Positions 6,219-29,300 of a stretch of 64,000 nt of DNA are shown here, piece after piece (the stretch's first letter is position 1; the number at the start of each line of letters is the position of its first letter). The notes beneath the pieces are model-generated. The model ran no database searches, was not told where the DNA came from, and saw only the letters and a list, made by a program, of their open reading frames with translations. Both the position numbers and the translations under genes were made by a program. Source of the stretch: Deltaproteobacteria bacterium UBA4427 (GTDB lineage Bacteria; Myxococcota_A; UBA9160; UBA4427); contig DGPZ01000102.1 of assembly GCA_002390675.1 (NCBI GenBank), positions 53,356 through 117,355 of the forward strand. The letters run 5' to 3'.

Positions 6219-6259
6219 GCGACCCACAGGCTCTTCTCGAAAGGTCCGCTTCGAGCGGT

Positions 6260-8106: not shown

Positions 8107-8619
8107 CTATTTGTTCGCCGTCTCCGCCACCGTAAAGGTAATCTGCTCGGACACGACCGGCGGGTCATGAGGCATATGAAGATGATCCCCCAGCACCAAC
8201 TGAAGAGTATGTGTTCCCGGAGCGAGGTCGAGAGAGACTTCCGTCTGCCCCTTTCCGAAATGTTTGTAGTGATCGCTCTTCGGAATTGGGAGATTCGATG
8301 CGGGCAAATCAGCATCTATGACTAGGTGATGATGCCCCGTTCCGTGCTTCTCCACGCCCGCAGGGGCAACGCCCATTCCACCGAGCCCGAAACGAACAAC
8401 GACCGGCGAAGTCAGCGTCTCGCCATTGCCCGGCGAAATAAAATAGACGCGCGCGTCATCCGGGCTTTCGCTGCGCGGGATCCCGCCCTCAGCGCTCACG
8501 GACAGAGCGCTGAATCCGAGAATGAGAATCGCCAGGACAAGCGAGACCGCCGCGGCGGGCGCCGCAGACAGCTTGGGTCGAAGCCACGTGGCTACCGAGG
8601 AAGTGTGCAATCTGGACAT
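8107..8619 (-). CDS. secreted DUF4399-family protein
   Basis: N-terminal signal peptide (AAVSLVLAILILGFSALSVSA). Characteristic GTGHHHLVIDADLP and His-rich C-terminal half (HYKHF, GDHLHMPHD). Confidence 0.75.
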   Translation of the reverse strand: MSRLHTSSVATWLRPKLSAAPAAAVSLVLAILILGFSALSVSAEGGIPRSESPDDARVYFISPGNGETLTSPVVVRFGLGGMGVAPAGVEKHGTGHHHLVIDADLPASNLPIPKSDHYKHFGKGQTEVSLDLAPGTHTLQLVLGDHLHMPHDPPVVSEQITFTVAETANK

Positions 8620-8845
8620 GGATCCAAAACCTCATTTTCACGATTGGGGGGCTCACCGACTCTACCGCGCAGCGCATCCCACGACACCTGCGACTCCCGG
8701 TCGGCCCTTTGGTCTTGTCTATTTGGTCGGCGATTACTCATCCGACCCTCCGGGACGATCCGAGGGGACGGGTTAACATGACACGCACAGTCTCGCGCCG
8801 GGGGTGTGGCGCGTTTGGAATCACGGATGGGGGAGCCGAATCAAA

Positions 8846-10249: not shown

Positions 10250-10541
10250 GCGCTTCTTCGCCAGTATTTTCCGCTCGGTGTGCGCTCGACTGCCCACGAC
10301 CGTTCTGCTCGGCGGAGGGGCCTGCTATCGTCCGCGCCGCTCCGCCCTGTCCGGGGCCTGAGCCCTCGTCGACCCGTCGGCGGTGCTGCGCAACCCAACA
10401 CGAGCCGCAACGCGTCGGTTGTTTGCGATGGCGACTCTAATGAATGCGGCCACGGCACCTGCCACGGCCACCCTGACTGTCCAAACCTTGGGCAAAGCTT
10501 CGCGCCCGGCCACCACGCCAGCGACGATGCGGAGAACGAAG

Positions 10542-11789
10542 ATGCAAATAGGTGACCTCACTGGAGAAAAGATCGGGATCTGCGTATCCGGCGGGCTCGA
10601 CAGCAAGTCCGTTACGGCGCGCTTGATCGAAGCCGGCCTCGATGTTGTCGGGTTCACAGCCGACCTCGCCCAGCCCGATGAAGACGACATCCAGGACATT
10701 CCGCGCCGCATGGCCCCGACGGGCTCCGAGACGCGCGTCGTCGACCTTAAACAATCGATGGCCAAGGCAGCCATGCTCGTCGTCAAGGCGCAGGCCCGAT
10801 ACGACGGCGGCTACTGGAACACAACAGGCATCGCCCGCGCCGTCACAGTGCACGGCCTGCTAGGCGCGATGCAATCCGAAGGCTGCACGGTTCTCGCCCA
10901 TGGCGCGACAGGCCGCGGCAACGACCAGCTACGCTTCGAGCGGTACACGAACGTCCTTGCCCCCAGCATGAAGTGTTATGCGGCGTGGCGCGACCCCCAC
11001 CTTCTTGAGCAATTTCCCGGCCGCAAGGAGATGTCCGCCTATCTCCAGACCAAGGGCATCGAAGCCGCGGTCGGAGAGGCGAAGCGCTATTCAACAGACG
11101 CGAATATCGCCGGCCTCTCGCACGAAGCCGAAGACCTGGAGAGCCTCGAAACCCCCATGACCATCGTCGACCCCACAATGGGCGTGTGGCCGCAGGATGC
11201 GCCGGACAAGGTGGAGGCCGTCACGCTTCGATTCGAAAAGGGCGTCTGCGTCGAACTCAACGGGAAGCAGCTCGGGCAATTCGACATGCTCTGCGAGGCA
11301 AATGACGTCGCTGGCCGAAACGGCATCGGCATCTCGAATGCCCTCGAAAACCGCATTATCGGCACCAAGAGCCGAGGGGTCTACGAAGCCCCCGGCATGG
11401 AACTGCTAGGAACGGGCCTAGCAGCCGTCTACCAGGCGGTTTTGGATCGACGCGCAACCGCGCTCTTCCGCCAGATGTCGACCCTCGTTTCCGATCACAT
11501 CTACGATGGGCGCCTCTTCGACCCGGCGCCACGCGCGGCGCTTGCTGCGATCGACGTGATGGCTGCGCACGCGAGTGGCACCGTCGAGCTCGGCCTCTAC
11601 CGAGGCAACCTGTTCTTCCACAAGTTGACGGATGTCGCAGCTTCGCTTTACAACCCGGCGGACGCCTCGATGGAAGCCAGCGACGGGCTCAACCCCGTCA
11701 GCTCCCAAGGTTATGTCGAAGTGCAGAGCGCGGAAGCACTCTCGATGGCCGGAGCCGGACAGATCGAAGCACCGGCCTGGGAAGAGTAA
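10542..11789 (+). CDS. argG: argininosuccinate synthase (E. coli-type long form)
   Basis: EKIGICVSGGLDSKSVTARL is an N-type ATP pyrophosphatase motif. The length and HGATGRGNDQLRFE match ArgG. ATG at 10542 is preceded by GGAG. The upstream ORF extension is Ala/Thr/Arg-rich and probably non-coding. Confidence 0.9.
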   Translation: MQIGDLTGEKIGICVSGGLDSKSVTARLIEAGLDVVGFTADLAQPDEDDIQDIPRRMAPTGSETRVVDLKQSMAKAAMLVVKAQARYDGGYWNTTGIARAVTVHGLLGAMQSEGCTVLAHGATGRGNDQLRFERYTNVLAPSMKCYAAWRDPHLLEQFPGRKEMSAYLQTKGIEAAVGEAKRYSTDANIAGLSHEAEDLESLETPMTIVDPTMGVWPQDAPDKVEAVTLRFEKGVCVELNGKQLGQFDMLCEANDVAGRNGIGISNALENRIIGTKSRGVYEAPGMELLGTGLAAVYQAVLDRRATALFRQMSTLVSDHIYDGRLFDPAPRAALAAIDVMAAHASGTVELGLYRGNLFFHKLTDVAASLYNPADASMEASDGLNPVSSQGYVEVQSAEALSMAGAGQIEAPAWEE

Positions 11790-14415: not shown

Positions 14416-17400
14416 CTAGTCCTTCACCGTCCAGATCGTTTCCTGGTTCGTCATGTAGAGCTTCCGCATCTCTTCGAGATTGAAGGGACGCGAGCCCAAT
14501 CGGCCGAGGACTGAGATCTGATGTCCCGTTTCGTCCACTGCGCGATCGCGTTCGAGAGGGCGCGAAACCGCGAGGGCTTCCGACTTCGTCTGGCGCATTG
14601 CGATCAGCTTCGGGTTAGGAACCGGGCTGAAGCCGTAGAACTTCGGGTTCAGCTCGGGCGAAGTCAGCTGCACGATCTTGAGGCCGTTCTTCCCATCCGC
14701 CACGTAGGCGAAGAGCGAAGCGTTCGTCGTCGCAATCGCGACATCGTGGGCATCGTTCAGCTGGCCCTCCGCTGTGAACTTCATGAACACCTTCGGACTT
14801 TCGGGCTGCTCCACATCCACGATCACGAGGCCTTCCGAACCCGACGCGACATAGGCGTAGGTCCGTGAGACAGAGACGCGACGCGCTCCGGCGAGGGGGA
14901 TCGTTGCCCCTTCGACCAGACGCGGGGCCTCGGGCTTCGTCACATCAACGACCTTCAAGCCGTCATCATCCGTCACGAAGAGATACCGGAACTGCAGCAT
15001 CGAGCCACGCGGATTATTCAGCGGGATCCTCGCCAGCATCTTCGGATTCAGCGGATCATCGAGATCGACGATCACGACGCCCTTGGCCGCTGACACGTAG
15101 AGCAGATGTCCTGCGAAATGCGCGTGGTTCGCGCCATCGAGAATGCCGTTCGGGTTCCATGTCACAGCGCGCTCAAAGAAGTTGTTGCGCGGTTCGAAAT
15201 CCGTGAGCGTCTCGTTATTCACGAGGATGAGTCCCTCTTCCGAATCCGTCACAGCCACGTAGCTGTAGATCGGATGCATCGCCTGCTCGAGGTTCACCTT
15301 CTGGATCAGATCGCTGCGGTTTAGCTCCGGGCGAAGCAGCTGCGTCGTCGGTAATGCAACACAGGTCGCGTTCTTGCTCTTGACCCGAACGTTCTGACCG
15401 AGCGGCGAGAAGGGTGCTGTAATGATGCGCTCCGAGAAGCCCTTCGTACCGATCGTCGAGACGTCAAAGGCCTGCATGCCCTTGCTACCTTCCGCGGCAT
15501 AAAGGTATTCACCGCGCAGTTGGATGCATTCGACGCGACCAGAATGATGCGTGTACTCGCCGTCGTAAAGTGCGTCACGAGGCTCCATCCAATCAGGCAG
15601 CCAGGTCAGTCGCTTCGACAGCGTCTCTCGCAGGCTCTTAATCCATCCAGCGTCCATGTCCTGATAGCCCGGCGTCACTTCAGTGAGCTCGAGATCACGA
15701 TCGACATGCTCTTGGTAGTAGTCGGGGTAGGCGTACTCGTGGAGGTAGCTACCTATGACCGCCTGGGGTTCATCCCATTCGGTCACCTGGATCGCGACGA
15801 CTTCTTCGTCGGTGCCGACCCAAGCATTGAAGCCCATGAAGTTCACGAAGTTAGTTCCCAGCAGAAGTAGCTGAGCCATGATCGCGTTGTTGTCGTTCGC
15901 TTCCGAGAGATGGCAATCCTCGCAACCCTTGGTCTCCGTCTTACGGACGGTGTGCGGGAAGTGTGGCGCGAAGGCCTGCGCGGAATAACCACTCGCCGAG
16001 ACCGGCTGCTGTTGGATGTAGATGCGGTTTCGATTGATGTCCTGGGAGGACAAGACGAGCGCCGAGCTGGAGCGGATCGGAGCGATGATCCCGTCCTTAA
16101 CCGTGCCGTGCTTGCCGAGCTGGAACATCTGATCCCGTGCGACCTGCGGGTTGTAGGTCGCAAAGTTTCGAGCAGTTTTACCCTCGTGCTTGTGGGTCTC
16201 GGTCTTCCAGTTAGCTTGGATCGTGAGATGGCAGCCGCCACACGACGTCACCCAAGAACTGTGACAAGAGAAGCAGGCAATCTCTTCATCGCCGTGGGCG
16301 CGGTTTTCCTTGCTGACGCCGGTGCCCCAACTCTGGTCGGTGCCCTTCGACATCATCTTCGCGCGGGCGGCCTTCTCGTTGTACTCCGGGTTGCCCGGCG
16401 TGACCGAGTCCTTCACCTGGCTCACCGCAAATTCGTTATGCGGGGGCAGACTCAGGCGCTGGTAAAGCTTGCCGCCGCGCCATTCGAAGCGTTTGCGGTT
16501 GTCTTGGTTGCGGAGGCGAGAGAGGTCGCGGCCTTCGACCGGCGAGGCCGGGCCGGAAGTCTTGAGCGTCGCGTATTTGTCTGCGGTGCCGTGGCAATCG
16601 CGGCAGCGGATATTCACTTCCGCGGCAACTTCGCCGTGCAGCTCTCCATTGCCATGTGAATCATCCGCAAAGTGACAGTCCGCGCACTGCATGCCGATCT
16701 CGGCATGGATATCGCGCATATGAACCGCGCGATCAAACTTCTCCTTGTCGGAGAGTCCGTCGGGAATCGCGTTGCCGCCAGCGTCAAGAAGCGTGCCGTC
16801 TCGCGAGCGCTTAAAGATGGCGCGGAAGTTCCAGCCATGACCATGATAGTCGGCGAACTTCGTGTCCTTAGTCTTGGGATTGATGTCCTTCCAGACTTCC
16901 GCCAAGAAGTTTACGTCCGCCCACTTACCCTTGTAGGAAGCTTCTTCCGGGTTTCGCTTCAGCACCTTAAGCTGCTCTTCGAAGTCCGGGTACTGCTGTT
17001 CCTCAGGCCACATGAGCGGCGCATCGGATTCGTAATCCCACATCGTGTAACCGAGATACGAGTTGAGGAACATGTTCGGCTGATGCATGTGGCAGTTCAT
17101 GCACTGCGAGGTCGGGATCGCGCGGGAGAAGGCATGCTTGATCGGATGCCCCCATTCCTTCTCGCCCGCCTCATTCGTGAGATTGGCAATCATCGGATCG
17201 TCCGTCGCGGTCTGCCCCTTATTGCCGTACTTCGAGTAGGAACCCGAGCTGTACCATTCACGATCGTTTGCATAAACGACGTGGCAACTCGCGCAGCCCG
17301 AGCTTCGGAAGTCGCCGGGCTGATCCTTCGTGCCCATGAACCACATGTTCGGATCGTTGAGGCGCGTCTTGTGGATATTAAGGACGGGGATCGATACACG

Positions 17401-18288
17401 GTTGCCAGTACCCGGCCCACGGAAGGATGCGCGCACATCGGGCTTGCCCGGTTCTTCTTCCGGATTCGGAATGCCCGTCTCGGGGAAGAAGCTGTTTACG
17501 TTTCGGCCACCGCGCTCGAAGATGCGGAAGACGTCTGCCGGTGGCACCGTTTCCCAAGCCGGAAGCGGAAGCGCCATCTGCATCACGCCCATATCCGACT
17601 GCGCGCGAGAGACCTTGAACTTGGCCTTGATCGCGGCGGGCAGGCCTTCGCGGGTATAGGCCTCGCCGAGGATGTACCGCTTAAAGGGCACGATGCCGTT
17701 GTTGTAGGAAGCGCCGCCGTAGAGCATGGCGCCGGTGGCCATAATCGAGCGCTTCGCCTTTTCGACGATCGTCGAGTGGCAAGCGCCGCAGGCTTCGTCG
17801 GCTACTCGATAGTCCGAAGGGTTGATGAAGCGGACGTACTCGGGGCTTTCCAAGTTCAGCAGTGCGTAGGTTCGCACTTCGTTGTTCTTCTTTTCCCACG
17901 TCTCGGGCATCGCGGGCTGAACATGCGCCTGCGCCTGCGCTGCAACAAATCCTTCTGATCCCGGTTCGTAGCTTCCCGAGGTCGCGGTCGCGTCGCCGCC
18001 ATGGCAATCGGTACAGCCGAGGACGACGGACCGCTGGGGATGCATCGTCGCTTCATCGGACTTCGTATGGCACGAGACACAGCCCGCGCTCTTCACGGCC
18101 GCTTCCGCCTCGGATTGATCGAGAGGCGCCGGAGGATAAATGGGATAGTCGATTTCGAGCGCGTGCTCGCCTTCCGAAGCGTTAGAGACGCCGCCTGTAA
18201 AGGTCACGGCGAAAACCGTGAGACCGATCACGAGGGTCGCAGTAAGGACCGCTGTTAGGAGCGATTGAGTACGGGATGCAGCTTTCAT
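14416..18288 (-). CDS. decahaem cytochrome c fused to a C-terminal LVIVD-repeat beta-propeller
   Basis: Signal/anchor LLTAVLTATLVIGLTVFAV. Ten CxxCH motifs: CVSCH, CTDCH, CGACH, CASCH, CMNCH, CADCH, CRDCH, CFSCH, CGGCH, CEDCH. The last ~375 aa carry repeats KGVVIVDLDDPLNPK, DGLKVVDVTKPEAPR, EGLVIVDVEQPESPK, NGLKIVQLTSPELNPK and EGLILVNN. Confidence 0.85.
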   Translation of the reverse strand: MKAASRTQSLLTAVLTATLVIGLTVFAVTFTGGVSNASEGEHALEIDYPIYPPAPLDQSEAEAAVKSAGCVSCHTKSDEATMHPQRSVVLGCTDCHGGDATATSGSYEPGSEGFVAAQAQAHVQPAMPETWEKKNNEVRTYALLNLESPEYVRFINPSDYRVADEACGACHSTIVEKAKRSIMATGAMLYGGASYNNGIVPFKRYILGEAYTREGLPAAIKAKFKVSRAQSDMGVMQMALPLPAWETVPPADVFRIFERGGRNVNSFFPETGIPNPEEEPGKPDVRASFRGPGTGNRVSIPVLNIHKTRLNDPNMWFMGTKDQPGDFRSSGCASCHVVYANDREWYSSGSYSKYGNKGQTATDDPMIANLTNEAGEKEWGHPIKHAFSRAIPTSQCMNCHMHQPNMFLNSYLGYTMWDYESDAPLMWPEEQQYPDFEEQLKVLKRNPEEASYKGKWADVNFLAEVWKDINPKTKDTKFADYHGHGWNFRAIFKRSRDGTLLDAGGNAIPDGLSDKEKFDRAVHMRDIHAEIGMQCADCHFADDSHGNGELHGEVAAEVNIRCRDCHGTADKYATLKTSGPASPVEGRDLSRLRNQDNRKRFEWRGGKLYQRLSLPPHNEFAVSQVKDSVTPGNPEYNEKAARAKMMSKGTDQSWGTGVSKENRAHGDEEIACFSCHSSWVTSCGGCHLTIQANWKTETHKHEGKTARNFATYNPQVARDQMFQLGKHGTVKDGIIAPIRSSSALVLSSQDINRNRIYIQQQPVSASGYSAQAFAPHFPHTVRKTETKGCEDCHLSEANDNNAIMAQLLLLGTNFVNFMGFNAWVGTDEEVVAIQVTEWDEPQAVIGSYLHEYAYPDYYQEHVDRDLELTEVTPGYQDMDAGWIKSLRETLSKRLTWLPDWMEPRDALYDGEYTHHSGRVECIQLRGEYLYAAEGSKGMQAFDVSTIGTKGFSERIITAPFSPLGQNVRVKSKNATCVALPTTQLLRPELNRSDLIQKVNLEQAMHPIYSYVAVTDSEEGLILVNNETLTDFEPRNNFFERAVTWNPNGILDGANHAHFAGHLLYVSAAKGVVIVDLDDPLNPKMLARIPLNNPRGSMLQFRYLFVTDDDGLKVVDVTKPEAPRLVEGATIPLAGARRVSVSRTYAYVASGSEGLVIVDVEQPESPKVFMKFTAEGQLNDAHDVAIATTNASLFAYVADGKNGLKIVQLTSPELNPKFYGFSPVPNPKLIAMRQTKSEALAVSRPLERDRAVDETGHQISVLGRLGSRPFNLEEMRKLYMTNQETIWTVKD

Positions 18289-18380
18289 TTACTGGGGCTC
18301 TCGCTCGTTGGCACGCTTGGACTGCTCGAAAGTTTAGGCATGACGTAGTCCGATTCGCAGATCGCTAATAAGGGCTCTAG

Positions 18381-20654
18381 CTAGAAAGTAAAAGTGACGT
18401 TTACGAGGGCCGAATACGGCGGCTCATCAGAGCGTTCATCAAAGAGTTCCTCGTAACCGCTGCCCGGGATCAACACCGAGCCGGAGGCGCGCAGCACGAC
18501 GTTATTCGTGAAGAACGGTCGATAGATCACGCCGGCGCTGATGTCCCAGCCGATTTCGCGACTGAGGCGATCCTGCTGACGTAGTGTCTCAAGCACCTGC
18601 ACTGAATCCCACTGCAACCAAGAAATATTGGTCAGGATACGGAGTTCAGGCAGCACATCGAAGTCCGCGCCCACGCCCGCCTGCCAAAGGCCGGGGTTCA
18701 CGAAGTTGCTCTGGCCTTCGCCCTTCGAACTGCGGAGTGAGGGCACGATGCTGTTCTTACCCGAGAGCGCGACGCTGCCACCGAACACAAAAGGAATCTG
18801 CTGACGCATCCAAAAGGAGGTCGTGCCGCCCGCGAAGTTCGGGTTGTCGAGGATTGTGTCGAAGCCCTGTGCCTTGTCGTCATAGGGGTCGTCATCGCCC
18901 ATCGAATACAAGAAGAAGGCCTTGTATCGCATCCAGTCGAGATCGTAAGACGCTTCGAATGCGGCGAAGAACGACTCTATATCCTGGCTGCGCTGGGCGA
19001 TTGGGTTGTAGTCGTCGTGACCGAATGCCCCGTAGAGCTGGAACGTTAGGTTCAAACGCTCGATATGACCGTCGCCACCCAAGCCTACGTAGTAGACCTC
19101 GTAATCGTGGCCACCAATCAGACCGACCGGGGACGGGATGACTAGGTTCTTGTTGTTGTCGAAGTCTTTTTCATCGCCTTCGCGGTTGATATTCGCCGCA
19201 AAGATCGCTTCCACGTTAAAGCCAAGGACCGGAAAATCCTGATAGTAGAAGTTGGCAATGATCGTGTGGTCATCGCGCCAGGACTCAAGATTATTGAGCC
19301 CGGAGTTCGTGTCTTTATTAAGGCGACCGAACCAGGCCAGGTTGTACTGCCCACGGTTATTGAAGAAGTTGCCGAAGAGGCGAACGCCCGGCTCGGAGCT
19401 CTCGAAGAGGAAGCCACGGAAGTCAGCGTTAAAGGGCTGAATGCCGACGCGCAGACTGTCGAAATCGAAGCGATCCGTGCGGTTCCAAAGATGCTTGTCG
19501 ATGAACGCTTCTTGAAGCGTGAAGTGATAGTCGAGACGATCATCGCCTTCGCGCGGGTCAAGCTTTACAGCGCCTAGCTGATTCACCCAAACCTTATTCA
19601 CGTTCAGCGCCGGCGTGATGCGAATCTCCCAGTCCGGCGGACGGAAGGTCGTGTCGCCCTGCACCAAAGAGATCGACGGCAACAGGGTCGTCTGGGTTTC
19701 CCAGGCGACGCCGTCACCAAAGAGATCTACTTCCGAGCCGCGGTCGCCCGCTGCGCCGGTCGGAATTGGAATCCGACGTGCTTCAAGGACATGATCGAAG
19801 ACGATATTGACGTTGATGAACCAGTCCTTCGTGCCGGGGATCGGACGGTCACCCTTCAAAGTGTTCTGGTTATAGGGGTCGTACCACTTTTCGTTGACAC
19901 CGAGATTCTCGATGATGCGCCAACGGTCAGGGACCGCGACAAACTCGTAATCTGGGAGATCGTTCTCGTAGGTCGGAACGTTTTGGCGCGTCGGTCGTTC
20001 ACCGGGCCGTCGCTGAGAGCGCGGCACTATCGGATTGGGCGCTGGCGCACCCGAAGACTCGCCATCACCTTCGTTGTCGCCCCCATCAGCCGGCCGAACT
20101 GGAGTCGGGATTCGCGGGGGCTGCGCGCGTCGCGGAGTCGGCGCCCAGGTGCCCTCGTCGATCGGCGGCGACGCCGTAGGTGACACGGGAACGGGAGCTG
20201 GCACGGGAACAATCACGCCGCCAGCAGAACCGTCAGATGCGTCATTGGTCGGCGCGGGCGTCGTAGGCACGGGCGGAGCAACCGGGACCGGGGCCTGTTC
20301 AGCGCCCGCATCGCCCTCACGACTTCCGCCGGGTCGCTGAAAGCTCGGTCGGCGGCGGCGACGTGCCCGTGCGCCGTCACTATCCGCTTGAGCGAGCAGT
20401 AATTCAGTGAAGCTCGGAACTCGAAGCTGATCTTCAATCTGCTCGAGAGTTTCCGACGTTTCGGCGGTCACTAAGAACGGAGAAGGTGCAACCGGAGCCG
20501 GCCGTGCGGCCCAGCTGGTATCGGCACCTAACAGAAGTAACCCCGACAGCAGAGCTACACTGTGTCTGCACGCTTGCGTCGCTAACCGCTTCCCTGCGAA
20601 ATCAGTTGCAGCCTCAGGGCCATTCGTGAGCGCGCGTTCAATAATCATGCTCAT
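18381..20654 (-). CDS. putative outer-membrane beta-barrel protein with a Pro-rich N-terminal extension
   Basis: Signal-like segment VALLSGLLLLGADTSWA. About 130 aa of Pro/Ala/Arg low complexity follow. The remainder is a ~520-aa region of alternating hydrophobic/aromatic strands ending ...SALVNVTFTF, a C-terminal Phe typical of BAM substrates. Its ATG overlaps the upstream stop codon (ATGA). Confidence 0.55.
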   Translation of the reverse strand: MSMIIERALTNGPEAATDFAGKRLATQACRHSVALLSGLLLLGADTSWAARPAPVAPSPFLVTAETSETLEQIEDQLRVPSFTELLLAQADSDGARARRRRRPSFQRPGGSREGDAGAEQAPVPVAPPVPTTPAPTNDASDGSAGGVIVPVPAPVPVSPTASPPIDEGTWAPTPRRAQPPRIPTPVRPADGGDNEGDGESSGAPAPNPIVPRSQRRPGERPTRQNVPTYENDLPDYEFVAVPDRWRIIENLGVNEKWYDPYNQNTLKGDRPIPGTKDWFINVNIVFDHVLEARRIPIPTGAAGDRGSEVDLFGDGVAWETQTTLLPSISLVQGDTTFRPPDWEIRITPALNVNKVWVNQLGAVKLDPREGDDRLDYHFTLQEAFIDKHLWNRTDRFDFDSLRVGIQPFNADFRGFLFESSEPGVRLFGNFFNNRGQYNLAWFGRLNKDTNSGLNNLESWRDDHTIIANFYYQDFPVLGFNVEAIFAANINREGDEKDFDNNKNLVIPSPVGLIGGHDYEVYYVGLGGDGHIERLNLTFQLYGAFGHDDYNPIAQRSQDIESFFAAFEASYDLDWMRYKAFFLYSMGDDDPYDDKAQGFDTILDNPNFAGGTTSFWMRQQIPFVFGGSVALSGKNSIVPSLRSSKGEGQSNFVNPGLWQAGVGADFDVLPELRILTNISWLQWDSVQVLETLRQQDRLSREIGWDISAGVIYRPFFTNNVVLRASGSVLIPGSGYEELFDERSDEPPYSALVNVTFTF

Positions 20655-23212
20655 CGTCCCCCACAGCCATTCTGTTCATTGCTGTTCAAGAAGGGGGCGG
20701 GCGGGCAAACGACGTACCGGAGGTTCACGTTCTCGACCGAAATGTTGTCTGCGCGAAGTCCAAAGGGCGCATTGCCAATCGGGTTCGCGATGCCACGAGC
20801 GGCTTGCGCTTTCCCGATTTCGTCCAGGGCAACAAAGGGGACGAAGTCATCCTGCTCCGCGCCATCACCCGAGACACCGTAGCCGCCAACTAAAGTGCTG
20901 TTGCCGGCGCTATCGCTTCGATAGATCGGAACCGCACCTTGGAAGATGTGGAAGCCGTTCTGGAGGCCGGTGATCAGGCCGGCATTGCCGTCCTGAATGC
21001 CCTGCATGCAGTCAAGTTGGGCACCCGCGTCGGGCGAGAGGATCAATGCGGTTCGTGCAGCATCGCAATACAGGTTTCGCTGAACCGCATTCGTAAAGAG
21101 CTCCGGTCGCGTCACCGCCGCAAGCGAACCCGTCGTATCGAAGAGCGCAGCAGCCAAGTCCGGCACCTCTTCGCAGAGCGCAACGGCAATCGCTGGAAGA
21201 ACAATCTCAGTCTGAATCCCGGTACTGAAGATGCTCCACTCTCCGTTATTAGTCGGCGCCGGCGGAACACTCGCGGTCGTCGCGTCGGGATTTCGGGAAA
21301 GCGGACCGTTGTTACCCGAAGCGACACCCGGCGGGAAATCGGGGTTTGCGATTCCGCCGAGTGAAATCGAAGACCAAGCAAATTCGCCGTCAAATATGGG
21401 ATCCGCTCCACTGAGCCCCAAGAACACCCGAGAGTCGGTGACGTACTGAGAAAAGGGCTTCGTATTTAGAACGCCGGCATTTCCGAGCGGGTCACGCGCA
21501 GCTTCCAACTGAGCCCGCGCATTCGCCTTCGACCAGAACGCCGCTTGCCGCGTCTTCGAGATCGTCACGTCGACACCGTCGAGCAACGCGTCCTGCGACC
21601 GCGCAAAGCCGAGTACGTTTCCGTCGAGGTCCACAACCGCGACATCAATTCGCGCCTGACCGCCTATGGGTCGGCGGGTCTGCGCGCGGGTGTTTTCGGC
21701 GAGCTTAAGGGCTTGGATCAGCAGTTCCTGAACGTCCGCAGCCGAGAGACCATCGGCCAATGCCGGTGCGGCGACAGCTACTGCGTTCGCCGGTGGGGCG
21801 GGATTCACACTCGGGCTGGCGGGGTAGCGCCGAGCTGTCGCTTGGTCGACGAGTTCTTCACCGTTCGCGGTCCCCGCAAAGCCATTCGTCGACTGAGGGA
21901 ACAAGCCAGTCAGTCCATTGAAGGTCGTCTCAATCACCCCTGATGTCGGGTCGAGAAAGAATACGCCGCCGCGGGGCGCGGTAAACGGGAAGAAGAACTG
22001 ATCGAAGACAAAGGTGCCAGTACCGCTGCCGAGCGTGATGAGTCCGTTCAGCCGGGCCGTGATCGCTCCGATATTGTCAGCGTCGTCCGTCGAAATTACA
22101 GGCGCACTCGCTCGCGAGCCTCGCAGCCCTGTGTCGTCGACCCAGCGAAGCGCTCGTCCAGCGACCGTTATGCGGTCCGCCCGTCGCTCAACATCTGCGT
22201 CGTAGCTCGTCGCTGCGTTTCGTCCCTTCGTGGCACCAAAAGCAATCCGCTCTTCGATATTCCGGTCGCTGTTTGTTGCGTCCTTGTCGAGACTGTAGAC
22301 GCCGTTGTATTCGATGCCGACGGCGCCGACGACGACCTTGCCTGTCAGGCCGGTCGGAGCTCCGCCCAGGTTCCGTGGCGCACTAAGCTCCGCGATATTG
22401 TCCTTATAGAGGGAGATGCCGCCGGGGTCGGCCGCGAAGCCAACCGGCAAGCGGCGTGGGCCGATCAAATCCGTCGCTAACGGCGCGACGTCCGTCGTGT
22501 CCGTGATCTGGTCGACGCCTTGGCGCGTATTGATGTCGCTGCACGCAAGCTGTGCGATCTGAACCGCGAAGAGAGGGCCGCCCGGGCGATCGGTTTCGCC
22601 AGGAAAGAAGTTCTGCTGGATCAGCGTGCTCGCAGTTCGCGAAGTGAAGGCGTTGCCCTGGGTCGAGAAGTAGTTGGACGTACCTGCCTTGCTGATCGCG
22701 GCGTAGCCGGCCGGAATAAAGACTCCGTCGAGAGCGGTCTGCAGAGAGGTCAGGCCTGCATTCGTCGCGATGGCTGTGAAGTTTGCGGAGCCGCCGTTGT
22801 TCTCCACAATAAAGGGCGTGTTTGCCGTTCGGTTAGGGCTCTCCACGGAGGTAATGAGCGAGTAGTTTGTCGTTGCCGCATCCGTGTCATAGACCGCGAG
22901 CACGTTGCTCAAGTGGTCCAGCACCACGATTGTGATATCCGGAATGCCGTTCGCTTCGGCTTCGAAAATCGCGTTCGCGATCACCTGCACGACGTCCTGA
23001 ACCGTTAAACGCGCTTCGACGCCTACAGTAGCCGCCGGATAGCCGGGCTCAGTACCACGCTGCTGGTAGTCACATTGGAATTGGCAGACTTGGGTCCGCG
23101 AAACTTCGCCGTCTTGGCAGGCGGGAAGCGAGAACGACACGACCACCGATGCCGCTAGTGCAATCACGGTTCGTAGCTGCCGTCGACCGACACTCATAAA
23201 ACGGGCGATCAT
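20651..23212 (-). CDS. lipoprotein with two GlcG/HbpS-like (DUF336, haem-binding-like) domains
   Basis: The signal has an RRQLR n-region and lipobox SFSLPAC. Domain 1 is LTVQDVVQVIANAIFEAEANGIPDITIVVLDHLSNVLAVYD. Domain 2 is LSAADVQELLIQALKLAENTRA...ARIDVAVVDLDGNVLGFARSQDALLDGVDVTISKTRQAAFW. ATG at 23212 has GGAGG 6 nt upstream; the TTG at 23215 is the alternative start. Confidence 0.65.
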   Translation of the reverse strand: MIARFMSVGRRQLRTVIALAASVVVSFSLPACQDGEVSRTQVCQFQCDYQQRGTEPGYPAATVGVEARLTVQDVVQVIANAIFEAEANGIPDITIVVLDHLSNVLAVYDTDAATTNYSLITSVESPNRTANTPFIVENNGGSANFTAIATNAGLTSLQTALDGVFIPAGYAAISKAGTSNYFSTQGNAFTSRTASTLIQQNFFPGETDRPGGPLFAVQIAQLACSDINTRQGVDQITDTTDVAPLATDLIGPRRLPVGFAADPGGISLYKDNIAELSAPRNLGGAPTGLTGKVVVGAVGIEYNGVYSLDKDATNSDRNIEERIAFGATKGRNAATSYDADVERRADRITVAGRALRWVDDTGLRGSRASAPVISTDDADNIGAITARLNGLITLGSGTGTFVFDQFFFPFTAPRGGVFFLDPTSGVIETTFNGLTGLFPQSTNGFAGTANGEELVDQATARRYPASPSVNPAPPANAVAVAAPALADGLSAADVQELLIQALKLAENTRAQTRRPIGGQARIDVAVVDLDGNVLGFARSQDALLDGVDVTISKTRQAAFWSKANARAQLEAARDPLGNAGVLNTKPFSQYVTDSRVFLGLSGADPIFDGEFAWSSISLGGIANPDFPPGVASGNNGPLSRNPDATTASVPPAPTNNGEWSIFSTGIQTEIVLPAIAVALCEEVPDLAAALFDTTGSLAAVTRPELFTNAVQRNLYCDAARTALILSPDAGAQLDCMQGIQDGNAGLITGLQNGFHIFQGAVPIYRSDSAGNSTLVGGYGVSGDGAEQDDFVPFVALDEIGKAQAARGIANPIGNAPFGLRADNISVENVNLRYVVCPPAPFLNSNEQNGCGGR

Positions 23213-23253
23213 CAAAAGCCTCCGGCTTCGACACGATCCTTCGCGATTTAGAT

Positions 23254-23273
23254 GGAACTCTTACCCGAGTTCC
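23254..23273. promoter_or_regulatory. inverted repeat GGAACTC-N6-GAGTTCC in the leader of the lipoprotein/barrel/cytochrome operon
   Basis: Perfect 7-bp arms, 42-61 nt upstream of the 23212 start codon, in the 307-bp gap between the two cytochrome operons. Function is unknown; it could be an operator or an RNA hairpin. Confidence 0.25.
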
Positions 23274-23519
23274 TACATCTATCTCGCGATCGACCGCGTG
23301 CGCCGTTTTAATCTCAGCAACAACACGCCGGCTCTTCCTTCACCTAGTTCAGCTAAAAGCTGGAAGAACGAACGCAACGAGCGTGGGCGAGTCGATTCGG
23401 CGACGACTTCAAAGTTCCGAAAACGACACCTAAGCCGTTGCCGAAATACGAAATCAAACCGGTCAGCGCGCCCCCACGCGTCCGCTCGATTCTACATCCC
23501 TGGAACGGAATTGCCGTGC

Positions 23520-25481
23520 CTAATTTAGGCGAACGAAGAGGTCCGTATGGGGGTTCCGCGGCAAGTCGGCATCAGCGCGACCGATCCCCACATAACCATC
23601 GCGCGAGACGCCGAGATGATTCGCCGGCATCGCCGCGTGATCCGAATGCGCCTCATGAATCGACGGGGCGTCGCCCTCGGCCGTGGGCTCAGCATCAGCC
23701 GCAGGCTCGCCCGACCTTTCGGGCGGTGATGTCGCCGCGGCCGACCCAGACGTCACGCTCGGCCCCATCGGGCCGTTCCCGCGCACATGAAATGGATGAC
23801 ACATAGAGCAAGGCGATGGCACCGTTTCGCCGCCCCAAGCATCCGCGCCCGCGTGACACTCGCGACAAACCGTAATGTCCGGGATCAAGATATCCCCGGC
23901 CTCATTGCTGACCCGAGTTGTCGGCTCCCTTAGAATCAACTCATAAGGAATCGAGTCCTTCATGGACCATTCGGGTCGCGGAAGCGCGCTGTCCGGCTCG
24001 GGATCGAAGACCGCTGCACCCGGGTGGCATTTTACACAGGCGAAGGGGGCGTGGGATCCGTGACTGAACACCGAGCCCGGCACCCAGATATCTTGGACTT
24101 GGACCGGAGCCACGCCCATCCCTCCGTCACTCGCTCCTCCCGGATCGAGTTCGTGACAGAGGTCGCAGGTTCCAGGACGTTCGTAGAAGCGCCGTTCCGC
24201 ACGCTCGACTTTGCTCTCGACCCATCGCCGAGAGAGTTCAGCCTCTTCCGAACTGAGTCGCGCACCTGGGCGCCGCATCCGGAGCCTACGCGGGGCCTCG
24301 GCATCCTTCACTTCGCCACTCAGCACGCGTGTAGCGTAAAACCCTCGAATCTTCGCCCTGATGTCGGCCGGATCCCCGTGCGGGGTGAAGCCCGGAGGAG
24401 CCGTGGCGTCGAAGTCGAGCCGATGGCAGTCCTGACAATGCTCCTCGAACACGACGGGCTTCATGTAGAGGCCACCCGCATCCGGCTCATGGCACGCGCC
24501 GCACTGGAGATATTGCTTCGAATCGCCGCGGCCGGTGACTGCCTTTCCGACATGACGAAGGTGACTAAATTCGAGGCCGGAGATCTCGACGAGATCGTCT
24601 GTGACATCGACTGAGACCGCCTCGAGAAGAGGGTTTGTCACGAGTGCGAGCTGGAAGGGCGGGTGGTCTTCACCGAAATCGCTCGCGTCCCGGAGCGAAG
24701 TCTCGGCGAGCTTGCCGCCGAGATCAGAATGGCAGTCCGAGCAAAAGCCAGAGCCGAGATCCGCTAGGTCGACCTGCCGGCCGCGATGTTCTAGATGGCA
24801 GGTCCCACAGTCGGCATTATCGAGCTCAGCCATCCTCATTTCCAGCGGCGAGTGCCGGCCAATATCGTGATGGCAGGTCATACAGTCATCATTCTGCACG
24901 GCCTGGAAGAACCCCGAATGACATTTCTGACAATCGCTCTCGACGTAGGCATGACCGCGGCTCACATCGCCCGTATTCCAAGGCGACTGAGCTGGCGACC
25001 AAAAGAGCGGAACTAACAGGAATCCGATCAAGATCGTGCCGATCGCGATCCAAGCCAGAGGGCGACGTGCAAAAATGCCGGATTCAAGGCCTAGCGTCGT
25101 TCGCTCTTCCAGTGAAGCACGTTCACTTTGACCTCGATCCGTCTCCTCGTATTCGAGCGCAACATCAACCTCAGCACCCTCTTCGGGTTGCAGTACCCGA
25201 AGTTCCCAAGATCCGAGCTTCAAGACATCGCCCGGGCCGATCCGCTCACCACCCGTCACCAGGCCATTGACGTTGACCTCTTGCCCAGCAGCGGCCTCAA
25301 CGTACAAGCGACCATCCGCCATGCGGAATGTCGCCTGATGCAGCGAGATCGTCAGCCCCTTGAGCGAGAGGTCGTTATCCGGCCCCCGTCCAACAAAGAG
25401 GGACTCGACTTCGATGTCGCGGTCAAGGCGGACTTTCTTGCCCGTTGGCCGCAACCGAACTTCTGTTAGGCGAACTTTCAT
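23520..25481 (-). CDS. FHA domain - single TM - periplasmic decahaem cytochrome c fusion
   Basis: The N-terminus has FHA signatures: FVGRGPDNDLSL, TISLHQA, VNVNG. TM segment LAWIAIGTILIGFLLVPLFW. Ten CxxCH motifs: CQKCH, CMTCH, CGTCH, CSDCH, CGACH, CQDCH, CDLCH, CVKCH, CRECH, CSMCH. The ATG lies 1 nt after the upstream TAA. Confidence 0.85.
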   Translation of the reverse strand: MKVRLTEVRLRPTGKKVRLDRDIEVESLFVGRGPDNDLSLKGLTISLHQATFRMADGRLYVEAAAGQEVNVNGLVTGGERIGPGDVLKLGSWELRVLQPEEGAEVDVALEYEETDRGQSERASLEERTTLGLESGIFARRPLAWIAIGTILIGFLLVPLFWSPAQSPWNTGDVSRGHAYVESDCQKCHSGFFQAVQNDDCMTCHHDIGRHSPLEMRMAELDNADCGTCHLEHRGRQVDLADLGSGFCSDCHSDLGGKLAETSLRDASDFGEDHPPFQLALVTNPLLEAVSVDVTDDLVEISGLEFSHLRHVGKAVTGRGDSKQYLQCGACHEPDAGGLYMKPVVFEEHCQDCHRLDFDATAPPGFTPHGDPADIRAKIRGFYATRVLSGEVKDAEAPRRLRMRRPGARLSSEEAELSRRWVESKVERAERRFYERPGTCDLCHELDPGGASDGGMGVAPVQVQDIWVPGSVFSHGSHAPFACVKCHPGAAVFDPEPDSALPRPEWSMKDSIPYELILREPTTRVSNEAGDILIPDITVCRECHAGADAWGGETVPSPCSMCHPFHVRGNGPMGPSVTSGSAAATSPPERSGEPAADAEPTAEGDAPSIHEAHSDHAAMPANHLGVSRDGYVGIGRADADLPRNPHTDLFVRLN

Positions 25482-25482
25482 T

Positions 25483-26319
25483 TTAGTGATACCAAAAAAC
25501 GACGAAAATGTGAACGATCAGCGCCGCGCAGGTCGCGAACGCAAAAGGAACATGAACGATCAGCCAGAGGTCAAGAAGCCCCTTAAATCGAACGTCGCGC
25601 CGAATCTGCTTCAGAAGTAGTTCCTTGCGCGCAATCAACTCAATCAGCTTCCGCTCTTGCTCTTTGGCCTCGTCGTCCAGATCAACCTCCGACGTTCGCA
25701 AGCTGCGAAGCGCGCGCGACGTCCCGCAATCAGCATCTTTCCCGGAGAGCTGGGACCGAAACGTGCCACCGATTCGCGTGTCATCTATAGAGGTCACGAC
25801 GGCATGCGCGTAGTAGTCGGGCAAGCCATCTGCGGCCATCCGACACTCAGAATCGATCTCGGCGATTCTCTCAAGCATGGCATCGAGTGTGATGTTATTC
25901 CGGTTCCGCGTCATGGAGGTCGGAACGAGTGCGTAGAACGCCACGCCAAGAATCCCGCTGATGCAAACAACGCACATCAGGGCATAAGCGAGCGTGTGAA
26001 CATTCCAGCCAAATTCGAAGGCCGAATGCAAAGGCACGAGGAAGAGCAGCCCCGTCCCTAAATAGACATGCGCCGAGACCCAGCCCTTAAGCGACGCGCC
26101 CGTCGCGGAGTAGCTCCGCTTGCGAATTCCTAGCCACATCAGCCAGAAGATCGTCGCCGCCGCGATCGTCCCAAGGCCGTAGCCAGTCCAAGAACTACCA
26201 CTCCGGCCACCCGGCGGATCGTCCACGACATAAACCACGATCGACAGAAATAGCGTACTAAGCGCCACCTTGAGATAGCGATAGTTCTGGTATTCAAGGA
26301 ATGTACGCGGCCCGATCAC
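25483..26319 (-). CDS. integral membrane protein, putative di-haem b-type cytochrome
   Basis: Five predicted TM helices. Two helices each carry His-x13-His: SAHVYLGTGLLFLVPLHS and IVHVPFAFATCAALIVHI. A ~110-aa charged loop lies between TM4 and TM5. The longest ORF starts at 26406 but would overlap the upstream gene by 83 nt. The GTG at 26319 lies 4 nt after that gene's stop codon. Confidence 0.6.
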   Translation of the reverse strand: MIGPRTFLEYQNYRYLKVALSTLFLSIVVYVVDDPPGGRSGSSWTGYGLGTIAAATIFWLMWLGIRKRSYSATGASLKGWVSAHVYLGTGLLFLVPLHSAFEFGWNVHTLAYALMCVVCISGILGVAFYALVPTSMTRNRNNITLDAMLERIAEIDSECRMAADGLPDYYAHAVVTSIDDTRIGGTFRSQLSGKDADCGTSRALRSLRTSEVDLDDEAKEQERKLIELIARKELLLKQIRRDVRFKGLLDLWLIVHVPFAFATCAALIVHIFVVFWYH

Positions 26320-26323
26320 GCGA

Positions 26324-29300
26324 CTAGCCCTGCCTTTCGTAAATTTCGTCGACGTATTCGCCGGGATCAATTCGCACAATCGCGCCGGTCGGACACGACG
26401 CAACACAAGCCGCGCGTGGCGCGCCGCTCTTTTTGGCGGGCAACTCCCGGCAGAGATCGCACTTCACGGCCTTCTTCACAGTCGCCGCTCCGCCTTCCGC
26501 CGGCTTCGCATCGCTCGCGGCCTTCTTCTTCGCACGCGAGGGGAAGAGCAGTCGCATCAAGAGCCCTGGCCCGGGCTCGTCGTCGACCTTGGCCATCTTG
26601 ATCACGTCGTAAGGACAGTAGGCCTCGCAGTTGCCGCACCCGATACACGTCTCGTCATTGATCCAGACTTCGCCGTTCGGATCGCGATTAAGCGCATCCG
26701 GTGGGCAGTCGGTCATGCACTTTGGATTTTCGCAGTGCTGACACGCGGTCGGGAGATGAAGCGCACTGCCCGCGCTCGTCATATACGTCGCGCCGGCTTC
26801 GCGATTCAAGCGAGAAACGCCGCCATGAGTCTCGCCGCAGGCTTTCTCACAATTGTCACAACGGACGCATAACGTCTCGTCGATCATCAGCAGATCCGTG
26901 GCTTCCTTACCGCCAGCCTTCTGCAGCCACATCATCGTGCCGCGACCATGCTGACGGCGCGCATCCGCAATGATGAATTCCTGCTCCTTCAGCTCAAGAT
27001 ATTCGCGAATCTCTCGCGAGCTTTCGACGTACTGAAGGATTATCTCGGTCGGGAAGAGCACCGTCTCGCAGTCGACGCCCGCTTTCGCGGTCGCCGTTCG
27101 AGTACGCCCGGGATGCAGCACTGCGAGTTCGCCGATCGTAGAGCCGGCGCGAACCGAGTCGATCTGTTCTTCAGAACCCTCGTGCTTTTTGTAGATCTCC
27201 GCGGTCCCGCGACGAATCAGATGTAGACCATCCGGCTCATCCCCCTCACCGAAGATCACTTCTCCAGCGCGATGCATCAAAGTTTCCGCGCGATCGGCGA
27301 GTCGATCGCGCGCAGCCGATTCAAGAGACGGGAAGAGTGTCGCGAGCGCGGTATTTACGTAGGCCGCGTCGATTACCTTCTTCACGTCTTCGACCGAACG
27401 CGTCAACTTGGTCATCGTGTTGCGCGGCGTCTCGATCACGATGCATTGCTGCGTCGTCGTCACCGTCTCGCCGCGGCGACGCCCCGAGATCAAACCATCC
27501 TCACCAAAGAACTGCCCCGCCAGACGCTTGGTTCGGCGCTCTGTGCGCAGGTCGTCAGGAATCGTCGGATCAGAGTTATCTAGATACGCGAGTTCGACTT
27601 CGCCTTCGATGATCGAGAAGAAGGTGTTGTCAAAGTCGGCGCGGCTATAGATGACCACCCCAGGCTTCTCTATGCGCACTTTCGACTCGAATAATAACTG
27701 CCGCAGCTGAACCATGGTGAGCGGCGCGAGCGTAGGCACCGCCTCCTGAATCCTCGCGAGATTTTCGCTGACGCTTCCGCCCACTTCTACGAATTTATTC
27801 GCGAGCACAGGCTCATCCGCGGGCTTCACGGATTCGCCGAGCACATGCTCTATGACCTCAAACCCCTGATTCATGCAGTTCTTGATCAGTGGGTATCCGA
27901 CCAGGGCACCCACCATATAAATGCCGGGAACATTCGATTCATACCGATCCGAAACGTCTGGAATCGCTTCCTTGTCCTTGCTCGGGAATGAGACACCTAG
28001 AGACTCAAGGAAGGAACGCGGCGGCGTAGCGCCCAGACGGCCTATGACGAGATCCGTATCGAGCCGTACTTCTTCGCCGGCCTTCGTCTTGAAGACAGCG
28101 GCATCGGATTCAAAGCGATCCGCGCTCGCGTGCGTGAGGTAAGCGATTTCGCCGGTTTTGATCTTCGCCTCGATGGCAGCCTTGTTCATTGGCTTTGCGC
28201 GATCGATCTCGTCGCGACGATTTACGATCGTAACTTCGTTGCCGTTTTCTGCGAGGGCGATCGCATTCTCGATGCCCGCATCGCCAACGCCAACGACAAT
28301 CACTCGCTTGTCTTCATACGCGCCGGGATCGTCGAGCTGATAGGTCACCCAGGGCTGGTCATCCCCGGGCACACCGAACTTCCGAAGATCGCCCTGCACA
28401 CCGATGGACAGAACGATATGCGTCGCGTCGACGGTCTTTGCGCCCCCCGGCCCACGCATCTCGATCTTGAACGCGCCCTTCTCGCCTTGGATCGAAAGCA
28501 CTTCCGTGGCCTCGACCAAATTCGTGCCCGCATTCGTCGCCGCTTCGCTCCACCAAGCAAGGACCTGTTCGCGAACAGCCTCTTCGAAGACCATCTTAAG
28601 GTCGCCCTGAAGCGGCAACTGCGGCGGCTCGGCCATAACGAGCTTGCCCTTCTGGTACTTCACAATCGTGTCGGCCAACACCGATCGCTCAAAGAGCGTG
28701 TGCTTCAGTCCACGCTCTGCTGCGCGCACGCCTGCGGCGATCCCTGCCGGGCCCGCACCGATGATCGCGATATTGATGCTAGACGGATCCGGCGGCGGCT
28801 CGTCGACAGACACAGGCCGCAAATGATGTGCGGTCGTCGGCTCAGCAACGCTCCCCTCGGCTGCGGCAGCCGGAGGCGAAGCGGGAGCGGCCGGGGATGC
28901 CAATTCAGAAGCCGGTGCCGGCTCGGCGGGCTCTGCAACCGGCGGGGCCGGTCCCGAATCTGCAATCGGAACGGCAGACGCTTCGACGGATCCTAGTTGG
29001 GTCGCGTCTACTTCGGGATCGGGGGTCGCCGAAGCCGCTTCGGCCGCGACTGCCTCAACCTCGAGCTTCAATCGAAGCACGACGCGATCTGCCAGCTGGA
29101 TCTCTTCGCCTCCGGCAAGCGGCGTGCGCTCCAAAATCTGGTTGCCATTCACCAGCGTGCGATTGACCTGACTCCTGTGGATCAGAACCAAGGTCTCGCC
29201 TTCCCAGACGACTTCCGCGTGCAGGCGCGAAATGCTCCGGTCGGCGAGTCGGATGCCGCAATTCAGACCGCGTCCGAGAGTGGTTGACCCAGCACCCACC

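Follow-up and report, generated by a model that had tools for sequence, protein, structure and literature searches.

The 64,000-nucleotide stretch of the genome of Deltaproteobacteria bacterium UBA4427 analysed here (contig DGPZ01000102.1; the window, to whose positions all coordinates refer) contains three adjacent genes encoding a lipoprotein (p854), a barrel-like protein (p757) and a large multihaem cytochrome (cyt1290), and these lie just downstream of a further group of redox genes, operon A, on the same strand. Whether the two groups form one trans-envelope electron pathway, as the original prediction proposed, is the question raised by this locus. We find that p854, p757 and cyt1290 make up the outer half of a conserved redox module of seven genes, which is a variant of the PCC4/Ptd type, PCC standing for porin-cytochrome complex. 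In a sample of 80 non-redundant loci fetched from related genomes (L001 etc.), the three genes occur in the same order and on the same strand in 77, two of the three exceptions being contig ends. The longer order A307-A653-p854-p757-cyt1290, which spans both operons, holds in 59 of the 61 loci with sufficient upstream flank and in four bacterial classes, with hosts among the Myxococcota and the Alpha-, Beta- and Gammaproteobacteria, and this synteny bears out the proposal that operons A and B belong together. Homologues of A1013 are found in 56 of the 80 loci and those of p481 within the cluster in 48, both on either side of the core, and all seven genes fall within +/-10 kb in 36 loci. The seven genes abut or overlap in Usitatibacter (L001), and the genes do likewise in Parahaliea (L076). 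A scan of one genome per GTDB species placed a homologue of the barrel in at least 594 species-level genomes. The members of the module, and the spacer between the two operons, are as follows.

20651-23215, minus strand: p854, lipoprotein; open reading frame (ORF) of 854 amino acids (aa) with a PF03928 match and a lipobox
18381-20654, minus strand: p757, predicted outer-membrane barrel; ORF of 757 aa, assigned by AlphaFold2 (AF2) and Foldseek
14416-18288, minus strand: cyt1290, decahaem-propeller cytochrome; ORF of 1290 aa with 10 CXXCH and a PF08309 match
23520-25481, minus strand: A653, FHA domain, transmembrane (TM) helix and decahaem domain; PF00498, PF14522 and PF14537
25483-26319, minus strand: A307, five-helix inner-membrane protein; motif conservation, with PF01292 near cut-off in homologues
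26324-29365, minus strand: A1013, a protein with FHA, flavin adenine dinucleotide (FAD), cyclic nucleotide (cNMP) and iron-sulfur (Fe-S) parts; Pfam, NCBIfam and Cys motifs
8846-10249, plus strand: p481, the 'pentahaem' cytochrome; PF13435 and a c554 profile match
23216-23519, minus strand: intergenic spacer between operon A and operon B

The layout of operon B is as originally described. Three co-directional minus-strand ORFs of 854, 757 and 1290 aa are present, the coupling of p854 to p757 through an ATGA start/stop overlap was confirmed at 20651-20654, and 92 bp (18289-18380) separate p757 from cyt1290. The 307-bp gap to operon A (23213-23519) was also confirmed when counted from the ATG at 23212, which is the second codon of the full p854 ORF starting with TTG at 23215. 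No terminator-like or promoter-like site was found within the spacer by a promoter/terminator scan, and site counts over 13.8-30.0 kb were not above those of shuffles, so that the operon structure is argued from synteny only. The corresponding gap measures 70 bp in L002, and the genes on either side of it overlap in L001.

The inner half of the module is encoded by operon A. A1013 is a cytoplasmic protein with an FHA domain, a thioredoxin reductase-type FAD/NAD(P)H domain, two cNMP-binding domains and an Fe-S part matching PF13247, in which 16 Cys make up four [4Fe-4S] motifs. The Pyr_redox_2/3 domain lacks the CxxC disulfide and its flavin domain is thus ferredoxin-NADP-reductase-like (FNR-like). 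A defence system was considered and rejected, PADLOC having returned only generic cNMP-domain similarity. The longest ORF of A307 (25483-26406, minus) runs 83 nt into the gene upstream; translation probably begins instead at the GTG at 26319, 4 nt past the TAG of that gene, which gives a protein of 278 aa as in the L002 homologue. A307 carries WX3HX13H on TM3 and TM5 and SGXXG on TM4, and the residues W109x3H113x13H127, S151GxxG and W281x3H285x13H299 are at least 90 % conserved among 53 sequences. The cytochrome b561/FdnI family profile PF01292 scores at or near its cut-off in several A307 homologues, passing it marginally in one, and A307 is predicted from its motifs to bind two haems b. A653 consists of a cytoplasmic FHA domain, a single TM helix (residues 139-164) and a periplasmic decahaem domain whose 10 CXXCH motifs take up 20 of its 20 Cys; ten such motifs are present in 62 of 63 homologues.

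The seventh member of the cluster, p481, starts at the ATG at 8846 as previously proposed and is here displaced by ~4 kb and inverted. It is a Sec-exported cytochrome of the c554 family with four CXXCH and one CX4CH (CDGSTCH), the latter kept in 41 of 44 homologues, and its profile matched cytochrome c554 (1bvb, 2e-4) and T. tepidum c552 (5ze8, 0.03) in the PDB. The 25 haem-c motifs counted earlier therefore hold as a total (ten in A653, ten in cyt1290, five in p481), with 24 canonical and one a conserved CX4CH, and the counts of 10 for cyt1290, 10 for A653 and 4+1 for p481 are strictly conserved. The locus had also been described as having no small periplasmic MtrA-like insert. No MtrA homologue was found, which agrees with that description, but the small periplasmic p481 is a conserved cluster member.

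We could therefore retain only a part of the proposed trans-envelope pathway. A conserved unit is present, and a route from cytoplasm to periplasm is well grounded because it comprises an FNR-like FAD domain, four 4Fe-4S motifs, a five-TM protein with two WX3HX13H motifs and an anchored decahaem; a porin-cytochrome complex in the MtrAB sense, however, is unlikely on the evidence of the outer half.

The largest component of that outer half, cyt1290, has a haem domain at ~60-830 and a C-terminal beta-propeller of LVIVD repeats at ~920-1250. Exactly 10 CXXCH are present and take 20 of the 22 Cys, compared with a mean of 0.01 expected by chance in composition-preserving shuffles. The propeller noted earlier on this cytochrome was recovered as a PF08309 LVIVD match (61.4 bits vs a cut-off of 20.2) with at least six tandem LVIVD-like repeats between residues 932 and 1210. 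Relatives of cyt1290 fill more than 7000 protein clusters at 90 % identity, and those of Myxococcota and Proteobacteria are still 55-60 % identical to each other. None of the 115 full-length homologues listed, at 58-99 % identity, departs from a count of 10 CXXCH, and a further 12 His outside the motifs are invariant across homologues, enough, as judged from sequence, for bis-His ligation of all ten haems. The type I signal peptide (VSNA|SEGE) lacks a lipobox, and nearly all of the 115 listed have ordinary type-I signal peptides while a few are lipoproteins. Sec export thus supports the 'secreted' cytochrome of the original prediction as far as the periplasm, which is the default location given a plain Sec signal peptide, and not beyond it.

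Similarity searches added little to this picture. The only named relative of cyt1290 is ExtM of Geobacter (NF040943), matched over three short stretches; at 82.8 bits (E 1.6e-23) vs an equivalog cut-off of 800, membership was rejected, and the match indicates distant haem-domain similarity only. The MtrC/OmcA-family profile PF22113 reached 23.2 bits vs a cut-off of 30. Sequence searches of the PDB with cyt1290, both as a single sequence and as a 50-sequence profile, gave nothing useful, and Foldseek with the poor model of the haem domain gave meaningless matches only. Our literature search found nothing on the decahaem and propeller combination, and for LVIVD with multihaem returned only an unrelated LVIVD protein of Tenderiales.

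The second component, p757, consists of a signal peptide, a ~200-aa Pro/Ala-rich extension and a conserved C-terminal domain of 538 aa that ends in ...TFTF, that is, in a terminal Phe. An AF2 model of the conserved domain, built from a 38-sequence alignment, is an 18-strand beta-barrel (predicted local distance difference test (pLDDT) 75.9, predicted template modelling score (pTM) 0.78), with a highly conserved loop of 71 residues between strands 13 and 14 that, in the model, probably folds into the lumen. The description of a ~520-aa barrel-like protein ending in Phe is in this way supported by the 538-aa domain, the model and the TFTF terminus, and the structure prediction proposed for the 757-aa protein gave a barrel and not a non-barrel fold. 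Foldseek against the PDB returned AlgE as the best match (E 2e-16, target TM-score 0.70, 12-13 % identity), followed by OccD/OprD channels and chitoporins; MtrB was absent from the best 50 matches. No Pfam match to p757 was found at E <= 0.01, a PDB sequence search gave no matches, and the Desulfovibrio porin family NF033939 scored a weak 27 bits. More than 3854 homologues of p757 are known, all of them hypothetical or unnamed, and only one among the matches listed has a precomputed Pfam domain.

Certain features of the N-terminal extension deserve separate mention. Residues 1-229 of p757 (19968-20654, minus) hold the Myxococcota extension, which is Pro/Ala-rich and punctuated by Arg, while proteobacterial homologues of ~580 aa are without the ~200-aa extension and one homologue (P0027) has an AMIN domain in its place. 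The region may thus be a variable arm that spans the periplasm or contacts peptidoglycan.

The usual formula for barrel geometry, R = b/(2 sin(pi/n) cos(alpha)), puts the backbone diameter of a barrel of 18 strands at ~35 Å when b is 4.4 Å and alpha ~43 degrees. MtrB-type barrels have 24-32 strands (26 in MtrB) and sheath the ~330-aa decahaem MtrA. A strand count of 18, a backbone of ~35 Å and the likeness to AlgE make an MtrAB-style sheath unlikely, and p757 is, on its model, an unlikely cytochrome sleeve: the modelled AlgE/OprD-like barrel is too narrow for the role of sheathing a cytochrome that had been raised for it.

These dimensions bear directly on the classical explanation of such loci, in which barrel, lipoprotein and decahaem-propeller cytochrome would form a wire across the outer membrane to Fe/Mn oxides, electrodes or cells, with the propeller outside. 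The barrel gene and the large multihaem gene are invariably adjacent, LVIVD and choice-of-anchor-B domains typically belong to surface proteins, some cyt1290 homologues are lipoproteins and one carrier, a metagenome-assembled genome (MAG; L079), came from a biocathode. In addition, what is very likely the same cluster type has been classed as a PCC in a 2026 paper (PMC13264449). The narrow AlgE-like barrel with its loops probably inside, the lack of an MtrA-like insert, a p854 with neither a haem-c motif nor a conserved His and the plain Sec signal on cyt1290 all count against such a wire, as do the many carriers that are cultured aerobic heterotrophs; among the recurrent flanking gene families of related loci no type II secretion genes were seen. 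We consider this explanation unlikely.

The third component, p854, is an outer-membrane-type lipoprotein with two GlcG/HbpS/DUF336-fold domains, each with large insertions. PF03928 matches two stretches at 57.6 bits vs a cut-off of 25, and the lipobox LPAC places the lipid-modified residue at Cys33 counted from the TTG start, so that the GlcG-like lipoprotein of the original prediction is upheld, as is its lack of haem c, there being no haem-c motif in p854. The lipobox Cys is kept in the Myxococcota clade. In most beta- and gammaproteobacterial homologues a classical lipobox precedes a Gly-rich tether, and the alphaproteobacterial forms are soluble periplasmic proteins. The family profile matches EfgA (6bws, 4e-11), 2a2l, the PduO C-domain, NahX and HbpS, the EfgA alignment covering '...PIYr..lvGaiGVSGDGvdqDD', and the GlcG-type domain is interrupted by an insertion of ~120 residues. 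No His is invariant across the p854 family and the protein in the window has 2 His in 854 residues, which makes a His-ligated haem-b relay unlikely. A model of p854 as a haem-b relay through the barrel was rejected as the lead model. A literature search on GlcG/HbpS proteins together with multihaem cytochromes found nothing.

A CxxxC motif (QVCQFQCDY in the window, residues ~40-50) lies 10-25 residues past the lipid-modified Cys of p854; it is present in the lipoprotein homologues of L019-L075 and missing from the soluble alphaproteobacterial forms, and four additional Cys are invariant. The CxxxC may form a disulfide staple or bind a metal. In L024, a Kiloniellaceae MAG, there is no lipoprotein gene, nor room for one, between the anchored decahaem and the barrel (7865-11600). 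As the only such locus among those with sufficient flank, it shows the lipoprotein to be dispensable in at least one lineage.

We propose, with about an even chance of its being right, that the seven-gene module is an outward, gated electron chain in which barrel and lipoprotein serve as a channel or docking site and not as a sleeve. The FNR-like flavoprotein A1013 would take electrons from NAD(P)H onto FAD and pass them along its four [4Fe-4S] clusters to the di-haem-b protein A307, on whose two b-haems they would cross the membrane to the anchored periplasmic decahaem A653. From there they would reach soluble p481 and cyt1290, the latter acting as a terminal reductase at the periplasmic face. 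At the outer membrane p757 and p854 would form a specific channel or docking site, giving cyt1290 access to a substrate or shuttle that is soluble, chelated or bound to a polymer. Flux may be gated post-translationally by cyclic nucleotide, through the two cNMP domains, and by phospho-Thr, through the FHA domains; gating is proposed because of these domains and of kinase and PP2C neighbours. The domain content, motif conservation and synteny of the chain are observed and its barrel fold is that of a model, from which we infer cofactor occupancy, the order of carriers, the outward direction and the channel role.

A number of points weigh against this proposal. Members of the PF01292 family usually react with quinones; the direct donor may therefore be other than NAD(P)H, and quinol may enter through A307. 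The strand count of p757 comes from a single AF2 model with some low-confidence loops, and the AF2 model of cyt1290 residues 39-900 is poor (pLDDT 52.7) and says nothing on the catalytic haem. The LVIVD and choice-of-anchor-B families are typical of cell-surface proteins, and both this and the few lipoprotein forms among cyt1290 homologues would fit a surface location. Inward flow from an extracellular donor has moreover been proposed for the related PCC4 (He et al. 2017, PMC5566968).

This last point leads to the reverse scheme, in which Fe(II), Mn(II), reduced sulfur or humics would be oxidised at the decahaem-propeller cytochrome and electrons passed to quinone via A307, with the flavo-Fe-S protein as a side branch or regulator. 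PCC4 occurs in Fe(II) oxidisers with inward flow drawn (He et al. 2017, PMC5566968). The PF01292-like A307 could be quinone-reactive, carriers of the genus Limnobacter are lithoheterotrophs, and geometry would allow a small barrel to work with a soluble donor in the way of Cyc2. The fusion of a four-cluster ferredoxin with an NAD(P)H flavoprotein, found in 56 of 80 loci, points however to a cytoplasmic redox partner and not just to quinone, electrons from Fe(II) or Mn(II) would have to go uphill to reach NAD(P)+ and most carriers are not known metal oxidisers. We regard inward uptake as improbable, somewhat more so than the classical wire.

Neighbouring genes raise a further explanation. Genes for PP2C and a double-FHA protein lie directly 3′ of the pentahaem gene in four Halieaceae loci (L043, L067, L076 and L079; ~16.6-18.8 kb), with a start overlap in L076, while in L013 an inserted Ser/Thr kinase gene (4662-7055, minus) separates the genes of the anchored decahaem and the lipoprotein, and in L052 a kinase and PP2C are found nearby (~20.0-21.5 kb). 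The window also encodes, ~10 kb from the cluster, a protein of 1090 aa whose C-terminal part is a Ser/Thr kinase domain (941-4213, minus), next to a PAS-domain protein (4395-6218, plus). This kinase/PAS pair could be the source of phospho-Thr for the two FHA domains, an idea taken from the kinase/PP2C genes in or beside the cluster in other genomes. With FHA on two components, cNMP domains, such kinase/PP2C/FHA neighbours and the sensors HbpS and EfgA as the nearest solved relatives of p854, the haem chain might instead report envelope redox or haem/iron status, in the manner of HbpS, to cytoplasmic FHA/cNMP partners. As a sensor, however, a module with 25 c-type haems, two b-type haems, four Fe-S clusters and FAD would come at a very high cost, the cluster conserves no domain for DNA binding or output, and the strict conservation of haem counts fits a wire or enzyme better. 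A sensory role therefore appears very improbable.

The outward chain that we favour can be set beside known systems at both membranes. At the outer membrane, the cluster resembles MtrCAB, MtoAB and PioAB in having a barrel gene beside decahaem cytochrome genes and in its trans-envelope redox logic, and differs from them in its 18-strand, AlgE-like barrel. Membership was rejected on that barrel and on the lack of both a ~300-350-aa MtrA/DmsE insert and an MtrC/OmcA lipoprotein; no ORF of the MtrA/DmsE family lies beside the barrel, the best TIGR03508 score being that of A653 (15.6 bits vs a cut-off of 192). Cyc2 is a single polypeptide in which an N-terminal CXXCH domain is fused to a 16-strand barrel, and p757, with one Cys and no CXXCH, was not assigned to it. 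The best structural matches of p757 are AlgE and OprD, AlgE being a monomer-type 18-strand barrel with lumen loops, although p757 has no PF13372 or PF03573 match. The pairing of a barrel with an outer-membrane lipoprotein also recalls AlgK-AlgE, but p854 has a GlcG/HbpS fold and not TPR, and its context is redox and not polysaccharide export.

At the inner membrane, the docking of a four-cluster ferredoxin module on a di-haem-b membrane protein in FdnH-FdnI is comparable to A1013 and A307. Unlike FdnHI, A1013 has no Tat signal on its Fe-S module, which is joined to cytoplasmic FHA, FAD and cNMP domains and therefore faces the cytoplasm. In CbcL of Geobacter a di-haem-b domain feeds a multihaem c domain, as is likened here to A307 and A653, with the difference that the b and c parts are separate proteins in the window cluster. 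NOX/FRE and Fre-MsrQ export electrons from NAD(P)H via FAD and two b haems, an arrangement to which the present module can also be likened. Apart from the marginal PF01292 score of one homologue, no family cut-off was reached for these systems.

The closest known system is PCC4/ptdABCDEFG. PCC4 comprises a porin, periplasmic cytochromes of 4, 5 and 10 haems, a five-TM protein with SGXXG and two WX3HX13H, a PF13247 Fe-S protein and other redox proteins, and the WX3HX13H-type motifs of the PCC3/PCC4 inner-membrane protein were assigned to di-haem-b binding (He et al. 2017, PMC5566968). The ptdABCDEFG genes are transcribed in an oxygen-deficient zone and their function was described as 'completely unknown' (Elbon et al., bioRxiv 10.1101/2023.11.21.568154); judged by described gene content, the two appear to be the same cluster. 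A307 has the five TM helices with SGXXG on TM4 and WX3HX13H on TM3 and TM5, A653 corresponds to the periplasmic decahaem, and A1013 to a PF13247 Fe-S protein and a FAD/NAD(P)/cNMP redox protein. A pentahaem of the c552/c554 kind and a porin gene are also shared, porins and pentahaems being matched by description and not by sequence, and both clusters are found in Proteobacteria and other phyla with no function assigned. The tetrahaem of PCC4, however, is absent from the window and from the conserved families of the 80 loci, the window cluster adds the decahaem-LVIVD cytochrome cyt1290 and the two-domain GlcG/HbpS lipoprotein, its FAD, cNMP and Fe-S parts are fused in one protein and the gene order is unlike.

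Two further descriptions are of related clusters. In MAGs from Sterkfontein groundwater and ghost-rock, a 'group 1 PCC' pairs the gene for a large decahaem with that for a porin of ~20 strands, and a gene for ferredoxin-NADP+ reductase is often close by (FEMS Microbiol Ecol 2026, PMC13264449). Judged from that description and not from sequences, it is very likely the same cluster type. A dominant Limnobacter MAG is among the PCC carriers there (PMC13264449), and the present cluster is found in the Limnobacter genomes L062, L071 and L077. Group 1 was listed without domain analysis, and the GlcG lipoprotein, propeller, di-haem-b protein and FHA/cNMP domains are unmentioned (PMC13264449). The statement that the composition is unlike Mtr/Pcc accordingly stands for Mtr and the Pcc of Geobacter, but the cluster is not unprecedented given the PCC4/ptd inner-membrane module and the 2026 PCC group. 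In Ferrigenium straubiae a trio of FHA-nonahaem, five-TM and 4Fe-4S proteins has been called novel and was expressed under all conditions assayed (bioRxiv 10.64898/2026.01.22.701106). It has the same three-part inner-membrane module, with cytoplasmic FHA on a multihaem cytochrome, and differs in having nine haems and, as described neighbours, nirK and an SHP-like gene, with no porin, lipoprotein or propeller cytochrome.

A number of other features were observed in the window and at related loci. The Ccm System I operon (ccmA, B, C, E ... CcmH/CycH) divergently adjoins the cluster in many Burkholderiales loci, including L029 (~500-4970, minus) and L062 (1560-4949, minus), which counts in favour of the proposed electron chain. 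Three MAGs titled Spirochaetaceae (L005, L007 and L009) have clusters 80-86 % identical to the window; L007 and L009 share the PEPCK neighbour of Myxococcota MAGs, the L005 sequence being too short to show whether it does, and one of the isolate names so labelled contains 'MYXO'. The Spirochaetaceae labels of all three are probably wrong. Elsewhere in the window a tungsten-type aldehyde:ferredoxin oxidoreductase gene (40108-41835, plus) stands amid genes for oxygen-dependent enzymes, among them a cytochrome P450 (46449-47636, minus) and a luciferase-like monooxygenase (43848-44714, minus), an unusual mix for one neighbourhood. An operon of PqiA, MlaD and auxiliary-lipoprotein genes (49914-52832, minus) is PqiABC-like and of the envelope lipid-transport kind, and a DUF3604 match of 689 bits was found at 61631-63415 (minus).

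Our analysis places PCC4/Ptd, the Ferrigenium trio and the present cluster together as sharing one inner-membrane cassette. The module is widespread and all of its proteins are unnamed or hypothetical, the cluster look-up having returned no protein names other than 'hypothetical protein'. Carriers include the cultured aerobes Limnobacter humi, Parahaliea maris, Sediminihaliea albiluteola and Sinimarinibacterium flocculans, and these cultivable aerobic carriers make the function directly testable by genetics. The 18-strand barrel means that metagenome calls in which porin plus decahaem equals extracellular electron transfer need care for the present group. Taken furthest, and with a low probability in our estimate, aerobic heterotrophs could possess in this module a new class of envelope electron exporter, NOX-like and gated by cNMP and phospho-Thr, with two b- and 25 c-haems leading to the outer membrane and a link to the outside made by an AlgE-like barrel and a GlcG-fold lipoprotein in place of an MtrAB sleeve. 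Extracellular superoxide and reductive Fe/Mn mobilisation have been reported for many heterotrophic bacteria, from an unidentified source, and if such an exporter exists it would be a candidate for that source. Cytoplasmic reducing power exported under the control of cNMP and Ser/Thr kinases would extend environmental electron exchange well beyond the metal-respiring specialists, by an outer-membrane solution distinct from MtrAB, Pcc and Cyc2.

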